Shown here one piece after another: positions 41,746-49,569 of a stretch of DNA of 64,000 bases. Location: NCBI RefSeq assembly GCF_003334815.1, contig NZ_QOWO01000025.1. The stretch is one strand, 5' to 3'. Source of the stretch: Escherichia coli (GTDB taxonomy: Bacteria > Pseudomonadota > Gammaproteobacteria > Enterobacterales > Enterobacteriaceae). Position numbers and translations under genes: made by a program. The notes beneath the pieces were generated by a model. It saw only the letters and a list, made by a program, of their open reading frames with translations, was not told the origin of the DNA and did no database searches. Within the stretch, counting starts at the first letter, position 1. Every line of letters begins with the position of its first letter.

Positions 41746-43416
41746 ATGGATAATGCAGAACTCGCCATTGGTATCGATCTCGGTACTACCAATAGTTTAA
41801 TTGCCGTCTGGAAAGACGGTGCCGCGCAATTAATTCCAAATAAGTTCGGTGAATATTTAACACCATCCATAATTAGCATGGATGAAAATAATCATATTTT
41901 AGTCGGAAAACCGGCTGTATCACGGCGTACTTCGCATCCGGATAAAACGGCAGCGTTATTTAAACGTGCAATGGGCAGTAATACCAACTGGCGGTTAGGC
42001 AGCGACACATTTAACGCGCCAGAACTGTCCTCTTTGGTATTACGCTCATTAAAAGAAGATGCCGAAGAATTTCTGCAACGTCCGATTAAAGATGTGGTGA
42101 TCTCCGTTCCGGCTTATTTCAGCGATGAACAACGCAAGCATACCCGTTTAGCAGCGGAGTTAGCCGGGTTAAATGCGGTACGCTTAATTAATGAACCCAC
42201 AGCAGCTGCGATGGCGTATGGCCTGCATACCCAACAAAATACCCGTTCGCTGGTGTTTGATCTCGGTGGCGGCACGTTTGACGTTACGGTGCTTGAGTAC
42301 GCCACGCCGGTGATTGAAGTTCACGCCTCCGCTGGCGACAACTTTCTTGGTGGCGAAGATTTTACCCATATGCTGGTCGATGAGGTTTTAAAACGCGCGG
42401 ATGTCGCCAGGACCACGCTTAACGAGAGTGAACTGGCAGCCTTGTACGCCTGTGTGGAAGCGGCAAAATGTAGCAATCAATCGCCATTGCACATTCGCTG
42501 GCAGTATCAGGAAGAAACGCGGGAATGCGAATTTTACGAGAACGAACTGGAAGATTTGTGGTTGCCGCTGCTCAATCGCTTGCGAGTGCCGATTGAACAG
42601 GCGTTGCGCGATGCGCGTCTGAAGCCGAGTCAAATCGACAGTCTGGTGCTGGTTGGCGGCGCGTCACAAATGCCGCTGGTGCAGCGAATCGCCGTGCGTC
42701 TGTTTGGCAAATTACCGTATCAAAGTTACGATCCGAGCACCATTGTCGCGCTGGGCGCAGCAATCCAGGCCGCCTGCCGCTTACGCAGTGAAGATATTGA
42801 AGAGGTAATCCTCACTGATATTTGCCCTTACTCGTTGGGCGTTGAAGTTAACCGCCAGGGCGTTTCCGGCATTTTCTCGCCGATTATTGAACGAAACACC
42901 ACTGTGCCCGTGTCGCGTGTAGAAACTTATTCAACCATGCACCCGGAACAGGATTCAATTACGGTTAACGTCTATCAGGGAGAAAACCACAAAGTTAAAA
43001 ACAACATTCTGGTGGAATCCTTCGATGTGCCGTTGAAGAAAACCGGGGCTTATCAGTCGATTGATATTCGCTTTAGTTATGATATCAACGGGTTGCTTGA
43101 AGTTGACGTGCTTCTGGAAGACGGCAGCGTTAAGTCCAGAGTGATTAACCACAGCCCGGTAACATTGAGCGCGCAGCAGATTGAAGAGAGTCGGACGCGG
43201 TTATCCGCATTGAAAATTTATCCGCGCGATATGCTCATCAATCGCACCTTTAAAGCCAAACTGGAAGAGTTGTGGGCGCGGGCGCTGGGTGACGAGCGAG
43301 AAGAGATCGGCCGGGTGATCACCGATTTTGATGCGGCGTTGCAGTCAAACGATATGGCCCGCGTGGATGAAGTTCGGCGGCGGGCGAGCGATTATTTAGC
43401 CATTGAGATCCCATAA
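41746..43416 (+). CDS. hscC: Specialised Hsp70-family chaperone HscC (556 aa)
   Basis: ORF MDNAELAIGIDLGTTNSLIAV...; Hsp70 ATPase signatures (GIDLGTTNS, DLGGGTFD) with short C-terminal substrate domain. Confidence 0.93.
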   Translation: MDNAELAIGIDLGTTNSLIAVWKDGAAQLIPNKFGEYLTPSIISMDENNHILVGKPAVSRRTSHPDKTAALFKRAMGSNTNWRLGSDTFNAPELSSLVLRSLKEDAEEFLQRPIKDVVISVPAYFSDEQRKHTRLAAELAGLNAVRLINEPTAAAMAYGLHTQQNTRSLVFDLGGGTFDVTVLEYATPVIEVHASAGDNFLGGEDFTHMLVDEVLKRADVARTTLNESELAALYACVEAAKCSNQSPLHIRWQYQEETRECEFYENELEDLWLPLLNRLRVPIEQALRDARLKPSQIDSLVLVGGASQMPLVQRIAVRLFGKLPYQSYDPSTIVALGAAIQAACRLRSEDIEEVILTDICPYSLGVEVNRQGVSGIFSPIIERNTTVPVSRVETYSTMHPEQDSITVNVYQGENHKVKNNILVESFDVPLKKTGAYQSIDIRFSYDINGLLEVDVLLEDGSVKSRVINHSPVTLSAQQIEESRTRLSALKIYPRDMLINRTFKAKLEELWARALGDEREEIGRVITDFDAALQSNDMARVDEVRRRASDYLAIEIP

Positions 43417-43423
43417 ACACGGC

Positions 43424-43455
43424 TGCCGGATGCGGCGTAAACGCTGCATCCGGCA
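43424..43455. repeat. REP element between convergent hscC and djlC
   Basis: gccggatgcggcgtaaacgctgcatccggca palindrome. Confidence 0.8.
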
Positions 43456-43475
43456 TCGGCGCAAAAAACACATCG

Positions 43476-47724: not shown

Positions 47725-48428
47725 AGGTCGCTCATATCCTTAAGCGTTTCCGGGCATGCAGAATAGTAAGCCAATGGTTGCCAGGACAAGGTAGGGTAAT
47801 ACGCATCATCACTGGCAAATAATTGATAAAACATATCATTGCCGGAATCGTCGTATTCTTTACGCGCTAAGAATTCGCGTAATAAAGGCAGATGATCATC
47901 TTCGGGAGACTGCCAATATTGCCGACCAAAGGTATAACCGGCAAAGTATTGCCGCCAGTTACTATAATAACGTAGAGCCCGTAGATGAATGCGCGACTGG
48001 ATCCATAGACTTTCTTCTTCGCTCAACCAGTTATTAAGTACGCCCATTCGGCTTAAAAAACCCATCCGGACATAATCCCAGGCTTTGATTCCCCCTTCGC
48101 CACAGCATTCGGCGGTGCTGGCGACAAATTGCGCATAAGCCTGACCTTGCTCATTTAGTTCAGCAAGATAGTCACGCCATTCACATGGCGAATAACGAAA
48201 CCAGCGGTGATAAAACCCTGCCAACCGAGCGGCATGACCGTTATCGATCATTCGGTGAATTGTGCGCAGCAGGTCATCACGGTCATCAATTCCCCATGAG
48301 GAAGAAAGGTCAAAAAAGCATGTACCTAAATACATTTTGGGTGATGAATGCGAAGGTAAACAGCATTCATTGCGTATTTCCATCGGAGTGGAAAGTGCAA
48401 ACAATATTTTTTGCGACTCCATGTCCAT
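47721..48428 (-). CDS. ybeR: DUF1266-like protein YbeR (235 aa)
   Basis: Paralog of YbeU; 4-bp overlap with djlB. Confidence 0.85.
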
Positions 48429-48591
48429 ATAATTTATCCTTAAATATTCATTAAATGAATATTAGCCGCATTGCGAGGCTCGTTTATTTATACTTTTCTG
48501 ACGCGACATAATACGCATAAAATAAGGCTTACGCAAAAATGGAACACATAAAAATATAATATGTTTTATCTGCAACCATAAGGAAATGATA

Positions 48592-49569
48592 ATGATTTTC
48601 ACGTCAAGTTGCTGCGATAATTTATCAATAGATGAGATTATCGAACGTGCTGAAAAAGGCGATTGCGAGGCTCAATATATTGTTGGGTTTTATTATAATC
48701 GCGATAGCGCAATTGATTCTCCGGACGACGAAAAAGCCTTTTACTGGCTGAAGCTGGCCGCTGAGCAAGGTCATTGTGAAGCACAGTATTCCTTAGGGCA
48801 AAAGTATACCGAGGATAAAAGCCGTCATAAAGATAATGAGCAAGCCATCTTCTGGCTGAAAAAAGCTGCCCTACAAGGCCATACTTTCGCTTCCAACGCC
48901 CTTGGCTGGACACTGGATCGTGGAGAAGCCCCCAATTATAAAGAAGCGGTTGTCTGGTATCAGATAGCCGCGGAGAGCGGAATGTCTTATGCGCAAAATA
49001 ATCTTGGGTGGATGTACAGAAATGGCAACGGAGTCGCAAAAGACTATGCGCTGGCATTTTTCTGGTACAAACAAGCTGCATTACAAGGCCATAGTGACGC
49101 GCAAAACAATCTGGCCGATCTTTATGAAGACGGAAAAGGCGTTGCTCAAAACAAGACACTCGCCGCATTCTGGTATTTGAAAAGCGCACAGCAGGGTAAT
49201 CGGCACGCCCAGTTTCAAATTGCATGGGATTATAACGCTGGCGAAGGGGTGGACCAGGACTATAAGCAAGCGATGTACTGGTATCTGAAGGCTGCCGCTC
49301 AGGGGAGCGTCGGCGCTTACGTCAACATCGGTTATATGTATAAACACGGACAAGGCGTTGAGAAAGATTATCAGGCTGCCTTTGAATGGTTTACGAAAGC
49401 CGCTGAATGCAATGACGCCACTGCCTGGTATAACCTGGCCATTATGTATCACTACGGAGAAGGAAGACCTGTCGATCTCCGACAGGCTCTCGACCTGTAT
49501 CGTAAAGTTCAGTCATCCGGAACCAGAGATGTCAGTCAGGAAATTCGTGAGACTGAAGATTTACTGTAG
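48592..49569 (+). CDS. ybeQ: Sel1-repeat protein YbeQ (325 aa)
   Basis: ORF 48586..49569 (start choice among MIM); about eight tandem Sel1 repeats (AQ(Y/N)xLGxxYxxGxGVxxDxxxAxxWYxKAAxQG). Confidence 0.85.
   Translation: MIFTSSCCDNLSIDEIIERAEKGDCEAQYIVGFYYNRDSAIDSPDDEKAFYWLKLAAEQGHCEAQYSLGQKYTEDKSRHKDNEQAIFWLKKAALQGHTFASNALGWTLDRGEAPNYKEAVVWYQIAAESGMSYAQNNLGWMYRNGNGVAKDYALAFFWYKQAALQGHSDAQNNLADLYEDGKGVAQNKTLAAFWYLKSAQQGNRHAQFQIAWDYNAGEGVDQDYKQAMYWYLKAAAQGSVGAYVNIGYMYKHGQGVEKDYQAAFEWFTKAAECNDATAWYNLAIMYHYGEGRPVDLRQALDLYRKVQSSGTRDVSQEIRETEDLL

Follow-up and report, generated by a model that had tools for sequence, protein, structure and literature searches.

A DUF1266 gene accompanies the chaperone HscC and its J-protein from Proteobacteria to Firmicutes and may provide a third component of the HscC–DjlB/DjlC system

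HscC is the third Hsp70 of Escherichia coli, and with the J-proteins DjlB and DjlC it forms a system that was reportedly described by Kluck et al. in 2002. More than 20 years after its characterization, no client or role of HscC is known beyond a sensitivity toward Cd2+ and UV. Which of the genes encoded next to hscC belong to this chaperone, and what these genes say about its function, is the question raised by the locus analyzed here. It is located in a stretch of 64,000 nucleotides of the E. coli chromosome (RefSeq assembly GCF_003334815.1, contig NZ_QOWO01000025.1; hereafter called the window), which is identical in sequence to K-12-like and strain C-like genomes and shows the gene order gltIJKL-rihA-hscC-djlC-ybeU-ybeT-djlB-ybeR-ybeQ-ybeL-leuS-lptE. 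A preliminary description of this DNA regarded the region as hscC accompanied by two paralogous cassettes, each containing a DUF1266 gene (ybeU, ybeR), a J-protein gene (djlC, djlB) and a Sel1-repeat gene (ybeT, ybeQ). The unit that is conserved from Proteobacteria to Firmicutes is a triad of DUF1266, a J-protein of the HPE type and HscC. The genes themselves and the link between HscC and DjlB/DjlC were already known; new are the DUF1266 protein as conserved third member and the exclusion of the Sel1 genes.

Reviews from 2021 and 2026 treat HscC as a two-component system (PMC8215388, PMC13254874). It was shown that the ATPase activity of HscC is increased by DjlC but by none of DnaJ, CbpA and HscB (PMC8215388). 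The preliminary description ascribed this stimulation to both J-proteins, which is correct for DjlC, while it is assumed for DjlB (PMC8215388). DjlB and DjlC are both tail-anchored and DjlC is inserted in the inner membrane (PMC8215388). HscC itself, the J-domains with an HPE motif, the DjlC-specific ATPase stimulation and the tail-anchored J-proteins are thus the same in the published system and in the one outlined here, which differs by having DUF1266 as conserved third gene instead of only two components. In the searchable literature, no link of ybeU, ybeR, ybeT or ybeQ to the HscC/Djl system was found, and the term DUF1266 appears in one paper only, a study on the H-NS transcriptome (PMC7582179).

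The evidence for the triad comes from the genomic neighborhoods of DUF1266 genes. A profile search with YbeU and YbeR yielded 727 family representatives at E ≤ 1e-3, and an alignment of nine YbeU-like DUF1266 sequences, run against a single genome for each species, gave 74 loci, which were collected from the DUF1266 side and of which all open reading frames (ORFs) were searched with seven E. coli proteins. These loci originate from Escherichia, Klebsiella spallanzanii, Rahnella, Erwinia, Pectobacterium, Marinobacter, Bowmanella and a Cellvibrionaceae metagenome-assembled genome as well as from about 40 Pseudomonas species and about 17 Gilliamella. Approximately 70 of the 74, from about ten gammaproteobacterial genera, encode a DUF1266 protein, then a DjlB/DjlC-like protein and then HscC, the hscC gene being convergent in most loci and co-directional in Marinobacter. 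The exceptions comprise three loci interrupted by contig or locus ends and a 6.5-kb contig (L079) with a J-DUF1266 pair lacking an Hsp70 gene. A 4-nt overlap between the stop codon of the DUF1266 gene and the start codon of the J-protein gene is seen for 66 of 67 pairs, and the HPE motif is present in 65 of 67 orthologous J-proteins and also in the Firmicute forms. When the neighboring ORFs of the 74 loci were clustered, only the DUF1266, J-protein and HscC families were common to several genera, showing that the triad occupies unrelated genomic contexts. The suggestion that the DUF1266 genes are partners of djl and hscC thereby holds, with a co-occurrence reaching far beyond E. coli. A conserved fourth gene was considered and rejected, as no further family lying up to 6 kb from the triad in these loci is shared between genera; divergently encoded neighbors of 190 aa turned out to be an OsmY-like lipoprotein in Gilliamella and an apparently spurious antisense ORF in Pseudomonas.

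The association extends to distant members of the family. Five standalone DUF1266 proteins with 22–26% identity to YbeU were sampled and all five are encoded adjoining a J-protein gene, with an Hsp70 gene also present in all four of their contigs that are sufficiently long. Locus L089 departs from the usual order, its genes lying as Hsp70-J-DUF1266 on one strand. In the Firmicute Brevibacillus, the Hsp70 gene is followed by genes for a J-protein of 878 aa, containing HPE, TPR and DjlB_C_2nd, and for a DUF1266 protein of 320 aa, and in Bacillus sp. FJAT-52991 the Hsp70 gene is followed by a gene encoding a single protein of 777 aa, in which the J/TPR/DjlB_C_2nd part and DUF1266 are linked. A second natural fusion, P0257, combines a J-domain with HPE, TPR and DUF1266 within 497 aa. 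Kept through rearrangement, across phyla and with fusion, the triad offers the strongest type of genomic evidence for a partnership that is functional and probably physical as well.

How do the three proteins look like in E. coli? Every coordinate given in the preliminary description agrees with an ORF and with the annotation that RefSeq provides for identical E. coli genomes. The gene hscC (41746-43416, plus strand) encodes a specialized Hsp70 of 556 aa. HscC shows the Hsp70 fold and remains far below the cut-offs of the NCBIfam models for DnaK, its best match (385 bits, cut-off 648), and HscA (379 bits, cut-off 709). HscC-type Hsp70s were defined as proteins of about 555–570 aa with ATPase and substrate-binding fold scoring under the DnaK and HscA equivalog scores. 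The Hsp70s whose genes neighbor a DUF1266 gene in Pseudomonas, L082, L089, Brevibacillus and Bacillus likewise fall under both cut-offs and are 39–56% identical to E. coli HscC. Together with the published specific stimulation by DjlC (PMC8215388), these scores support the view that the system is dedicated rather than part of general proteostasis.

The two J-proteins are encoded on the minus strand by djlC (43476-44927, 483 aa) and djlB (46297-47724, 475 aa). Their match to the DnaJ Pfam model is weak (0.036 and 1.7e-3), and both N-terminal J-domains carry H31-P32-E33, i.e., HPE in place of HPD (window 44829-44837 in djlC and 47626-47634 in djlB, both minus strand). This is a known peculiarity of DjlB/DjlC, and tolerance of HPE was noted (PMC13254874). 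A single C-terminal hydrophobic segment was found in both proteins as described before, starting at about residue 457 in DjlC (window ~43479-43559, minus strand) and at about residue 446 in DjlB (window ~46300-46389, minus strand). The helical part that follows the J-domain has a Pfam family of its own, DjlB_C_2nd (PF27158); in DjlC this helical domain has a generic likeness to TPR-like solenoids and no close solved structure was found for it. In combining a J-domain with TPR-like repeats, these proteins resemble the DnaJ-TPR class-C J-proteins of the P58IPK/DNAJC3 type, and the Firmicute relatives have clear TPR matches. They differ from these by an N-terminal J-domain that carries HPE and by a helical part that belongs to DjlB_C_2nd.

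The DUF1266 proteins YbeU (44924-45631, minus strand) and YbeR (47721-48428, minus strand), both of 235 aa, are encoded upstream of djlC and djlB, respectively. Both match DUF1266 (PF06889) in Pfam, with E = 4.7e-45 for YbeU, of which residues 41-216 cover positions 2-175 of the 175 positions of the model. Close standalone DUF1266 proteins of about 235 aa have in common an N-terminal WL.ALSAPM, a central GGI.AWD..R and a C-terminal LPW...P.SL motif. The AlphaFold2 model of YbeU is all-alpha with a predicted local distance difference test (pLDDT) score of 90.4, and no relative of YbeU was found among solved structures. DjlC and DjlB align from end to end with 49% identity (E = 6e-156), and YbeU and YbeR align free of gaps with 59% identity (E = 1e-104). 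As judged from these alignments, the full-length paralogy proposed for both protein pairs lies well past chance.

The DUF1266 and J-protein genes of each pair overlap by four nucleotides, ATGA, at 44924-44927 (ybeU/djlC, minus strand) and at 47721-47724 (ybeR/djlB, minus strand); both overlaps were evident from the coordinates. A DNA alignment of the two copies furthermore confirmed the near identity of the junctions, AACGCTTAAGGAT[G/A]TGAGCGACCTATGAAAA. By this overlap, the DUF1266 and J genes are translationally coupled. Such tight coupling would also fit a modulator as known from CbpA-CbpM, in which DUF1266 would be a co-expressed inhibitor or gate holding the J-protein off HscC until a signal arrives. 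CbpM gives a precedent for this, since it is a small co-operonic protein that is specific for its J-protein and blocks it (PMC8215388). However, CbpM is encoded downstream of its J-protein gene, inhibits via the J-domain and belongs to a system working with DnaK, whereas the DUF1266 gene lies upstream in Proteobacteria, so that the gene order is reversed relative to cbpA-cbpM. In a Pfam scan, YbeU and YbeR matched DUF1266 only and thus showed no sequence relation to CbpM, and the DUF1266 association is found in more than one phylum while CbpM is confined to Gammaproteobacteria. We therefore consider a modulator of the CbpM kind clearly unlikely.

Do the Sel1-repeat genes belong to the same unit? 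YbeQ (48586-49569, plus strand; divergent from ybeR), whose start is annotated in RefSeq at 48592, i.e., two codons past the ORF start, is cytoplasmic and contains eight tandem Sel1 repeats of the 36-residue type (PF08238), seven of them with E ≤ 1e-3, in agreement with the approximately eight noted earlier. YbeT (45733-46287, plus strand; 184 aa) has, as described, an N-terminal hydrophobic signal or anchor stretch ahead of three Sel1 repeats. Both are Sel1 proteins, but their likeness is limited to the repeat unit, with about 36% identity and several alternative registers, and their sequences provide no demonstrable origin in the same duplication. A cassette of three genes is thus not what was duplicated; the duplicated unit is the two-gene DUF1266-J pair. 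Among the 74 loci of the scan, no genus other than Escherichia has a Sel1 ORF at a distance of up to 10 kb from the triad. ybeT occurs in Escherichia only and is absent from Salmonella, K. spallanzanii and all non-enteric loci, and ybeQ is common to Escherichia and Salmonella only, its Salmonella orthologue being located at the same position with 49–50% identity. In Salmonella the order is ybeL-ybeQ-[DUF1266-J]-[DUF1266-J]-hscC-(412-aa gene)-rihA, lacking ybeT, and in K. spallanzanii it is ybeL-[DUF1266-J]-hscC, lacking any Sel1 gene. As the Sel1 genes are missing from the triads of the other genera, they are lineage-specific add-ons outside the conserved system. By this distribution, the ancestor of Escherichia and Salmonella already had ybeQ, and ybeT was added in Escherichia. 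Since the prediction for YbeT is export or anchoring in the membrane, a direct pairing of this Sel1 protein with HscC is unlikely. The stop codons of the convergent genes ybeT and djlB are only 9 bp apart (window 46288-46296), which fits a tight later insertion of ybeT between the two DUF1266-J pairs.

Identity matrices group YbeU and DjlC with the hscC-proximal pair of Salmonella and YbeR with the ybeQ-proximal DUF1266 protein, while DjlB is equidistant from both Salmonella J-proteins. This pairing dates the duplication of the DUF1266-J pair before the split of Escherichia and Salmonella, since when both copies were kept intact. The enteric J-proteins are, moreover, shortened. In Proteobacteria outside the Enterobacteriaceae the J-proteins comprise about 890–930 aa with two to three C-terminal spans matching DUF805 (E = 1.8e-7), whereas the enteric ones (472–487 aa) are equivalent to the N-terminal ~436 residues of the long form followed by a new single tail anchor; in a profile comparison, residues 2-429 of the short form align to 4-436 of the ~890-aa J-proteins with E = 4.6e-68. 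The membrane tethering that was proposed in the preliminary description holds for Gammaproteobacteria but not for the J-protein of Brevibacillus, which lacks a hydrophobic segment. YbeQ was also considered as a split-off of the residues ~437-785 of the long J-proteins that are lost in the enteric forms; this homology was rejected with an hhalign probability of 0.2%.

How could the three proteins work together? For the pair of J-protein and DUF1266, the first ~300–375 residues of the J-protein, a Gly/Ser linker of 30 residues and the cognate DUF1266 protein were co-folded using a paired alignment of 20 taxa. The linker-fused model of DjlC(1-362) and YbeU reached a predicted template modeling (pTM) score of 0.75 and a mean pLDDT of 85 despite ~40 disordered linker residues. 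For two independent bodies of that size a pTM of ~0.5 would be expected, a figure that is our own estimate. The score is no more than an indication in line with an assembly in which the helical domain of the J-protein and DUF1266 would be packed against each other. Together with the conservation described above, we are inclined, with some reserve, to regard the locus as encoding a specialized three-component Hsp70 machine in which DUF1266 partners the J-protein. The core would consist of HscC, a DjlB/DjlC-type J-protein of class C with its HPE J-domain and subsequent TPR-like helical domain, and the DUF1266 protein. The latter would be made 1:1 with its J-protein and would dock on its helical domain, upon which the J-domain would recruit HscC and trigger its ATPase activity. 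The DUF1266 subunit might then set or gate the targets of HscC as adaptor or regulator, or might itself be a dedicated client, so that its role would be that of an adaptor, regulator or client of the HscC system. In Gammaproteobacteria the complex would be placed at the cytoplasmic face of the inner membrane, by a multi-span anchor of the DUF805 type in most genera and by a single tail anchor in the enteric short forms. The enteric lineage would have reduced the J-protein to an N-terminal part of ~430 residues and doubled the DUF1266-J pair before the Escherichia/Salmonella split, resulting in two diverged targeting modules acting on one HscC, and the Sel1-repeat genes would have joined later, first ybeQ and then, in Escherichia, ybeT.

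The possibility that DUF1266 is a client leads to the comparison with HscA-HscB-IscU. In both systems a specialized Hsp70, a specialized J-protein with a helical domain for partner binding, which is putative in DjlB/DjlC, and a small partner are co-encoded, and neither requires a nucleotide exchange factor (PMC8215388). The triad shows the co-encoded and co-inherited Hsp70, J-protein and small partner that characterize a module of the HscA/HscB/IscU type. On the other hand, DUF1266 and IscU have no sequence relation, DjlB/DjlC and HscB are alike in the J-domain only, the HscC locus has no Fe-S genes nearby, the proteobacterial HscC system is membrane-anchored, and IscU is a client while DUF1266 is a putative client only. 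In a strict analogy, DUF1266 would be the sole cargo that the helical domain of the J-protein hands to HscC for remodeling, e.g., for switching DUF1266 between states or for inserting or releasing it at the membrane. The logic of the isc operon, in which a single small partner stays with a specialized Hsp70 and a specialized J-protein, applies to the triad across phyla and speaks for this, as does a conserved stretch at the C-terminus of DUF1266 (LPW...P.SL) that is modeled as non-helical with lower confidence and could be an Hsp70-binding segment. However, this stretch is a putative Hsp70-binding motif at most, and a fusion of J-protein and DUF1266 in one chain is less natural for a cargo that is handed over. 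We regard the sole-cargo explanation as rather unlikely; it is a sub-case of the three-component machine and not an alternative to the partnership. A slightly broader version, in which DUF1266 would be either a single dedicated client or a signal-sensing switch that is held by the helical domain of the J-protein and remodeled by HscC, is a possible though doubtful reading.

In this broader version, DUF1266 would be the functional key to the HscC system. HscC, DjlB/DjlC and DUF1266 would constitute an Hsp70 machine that is ancient and serves a single purpose, much as HscA-HscB-IscU does, and the two enteric DUF1266-J pairs would represent two separately tuned inputs to one motor. The conserved third gene, which is at times fused to the J-protein, gives a concrete handle on the function of HscC, and the triad gives the DUF1266 family its first functional context. 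Pseudomonas, Gilliamella and Erwinia, which have a single non-redundant triad each, are better experimental hosts than E. coli K-12, in which the island is duplicated and H-NS-silenced.

Several points weigh against the three-component machine. DUF1266 is not exclusive to the triad, as many of the 727 representatives have greater length and contain signal peptides and further domains, which argues for a wider activity of the domain. The support by co-folding consists of a single pTM value. Finally, frequent loss, insertions of insertion sequence (IS) elements and pseudogenes show that the system is dispensable in E. coli. The extent of this loss was determined in 5,426 complete E. coli genomes. 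hscC is present in 4,410 of these and ybeR-djlB was detected in 4,416, with a coverage of at least 80% in 3,713, while rihA directly adjoins ybeL in 963 genomes, e.g., in strain 536. The island, which reaches in the window from the stop codon of rihA to that of ybeL (41663-49638) and is either carried or missing as one block in E. coli, is thus wholly lost in ~18% of the genomes and partly in ~13% more. Intermediate states include a deletion of djlB, ybeR and the 5' part of ybeQ and a djlC/djlB chimera with pseudogenes. As Salmonella, K. spallanzanii and other Escherichia carry the island beside ybeL, its absence in E. coli is interpreted as a secondary loss. No direct repeats that could be insertion scars flank the island, and the empty site holds a palindrome similar to repetitive extragenic palindromic (REP) elements instead. 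IS1, IS903B and IS4-family insertions break hscC or djlB in several complete genomes (H51-H56).

These observations could suggest that the island is a decaying remnant or a fortuitous cluster, i.e., a silenced and dispensable relic of E. coli with no current function. The whole and partial losses, the frameshifts, internal stops and IS insertions, and the fact that HscC, DjlB and DjlC are under the proteomic detection limit (PMC8215388) are in favor of it. However, both DUF1266-J pairs have kept full-length frames since their duplication, and the Cd2+ and UV sensitivity of E. coli were reported as deletion phenotypes (PMC8215388). Chance clustering also cannot explain a triad that is conserved across phyla through rearrangement and fusion. 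The preliminary description had linked a fortuitous clustering to a lack of co-occurrence outside E. coli; DUF1266 does co-occur there with hscC and djl, while Sel1 does not, save for ybeQ of Salmonella. We consider a mere remnant extremely improbable.

The island is also subject to silencing. ybeT and the ybeU-djlC operon belong to the H-NS regulon and are up-regulated on over-production of SlyA (PMC5797941), and an hns mutation de-repressed a DUF1266 gene of strain 042 by a factor of ~300 at 25 °C (PMC7582179). The G+C content dips to 0.40–0.44 in the surroundings of ybeT, between ybeR and ybeQ and where hscC begins, compared to 0.50–0.55 in the flanks. In E. coli the island is accessory, H-NS-silenced and often lost. 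Between E. coli and Salmonella, the flanking proteins RihA and YbeL are 92% and 93% identical, respectively, while identities amount to 83% for HscC, 64% for YbeR, 63% for YbeU, 57% for DjlC, 50% for YbeQ and 47% for DjlB; on the basis of these identities, the targeting components change much faster than the flanking genes.

Fast evolution of the partners, low G+C content, H-NS regulation and variability within E. coli, with other small genes sometimes occupying the same site, would be compatible with a module for anti-phage defense or another conflict, with the chaperone as its sensor or effector, as would the location of the triad on plasmids in Erwinia persicina. A defense-related role had been put forward in the preliminary description, but it found no support. 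PADLOC-DB 2.0 gave no match for HscC, DjlB/DjlC or YbeU/YbeR, and YbeT and YbeQ gave weak, repeat-type matches to the PtuA N-terminus only (2e-3 and 1e-4) with no stretch passing alone. The neighbors in other genera are ordinary metabolic and signaling genes that form no defense islands, with no defense-type neighbors shared between genera, and the island encodes no nuclease, toxin or NTPase effector. The sole phage screen flagging ybeT was not reproduced by the knockout (bioRxiv 10.1101/2025.12.01.691526), and two matches in a phage database are unannotated records of 1.5–2.6 kb, which were taken as host DNA. A conflict module is hence very unlikely.

With regard to the genomic sites, the triad of E. 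persicina is encoded on plasmids of 130–165 kb (NZ_CP082142.1, NZ_CP101614.1, NZ_CP022727.1, NZ_CP146505.1), and chromosomal-looking contigs of the same species (L012 and L015) may be that same replicon. In E. coli F8111-1SC3 the place of the island between rihA and ybeL is taken by a DUF6985 gene together with two hypothetical genes of small size (L003:2226-3176), and the rihA/ybeL site may be a small variable hotspot. The 412-aa gene between hscC and rihA in Salmonella enterica (L081:14082-15320) has no Pfam or NCBIfam match and is absent from E. coli. The interval between ybeL and ybeQ of Escherichia sp. MOD1-EC7003 (L006:3648-5986) contains extra divergent J-like ORFs of 93 aa and 344 aa, which weakly match DjlB/DjlC, as well as a 321-aa ORF with a faint SgcJ/EcaC-like match; these extra ORFs could be a third, degenerate module. 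A contig labeled Paenibacillus sp. USDA918EY (L010) has an end that is 100% identical to residues 81-209 of E. coli YbeU, which is probably due to contamination or a chimeric assembly.

In the window, a scan for promoters and terminators was uninformative, with counts at or below the shuffled expectation. Between the convergent genes hscC and djlC (43417-43475) a REP-like palindrome is present, GCCGGATG...CATCCGGC, and a similar element fills the empty site of strain 536 (L002:2165-2207). The longest ORF of leuS (50215-52938, 907 aa) begins 47 codons upstream of the annotated product of 860 aa, an artefact that arises from calling ORFs mechanically and is irrelevant to the island.

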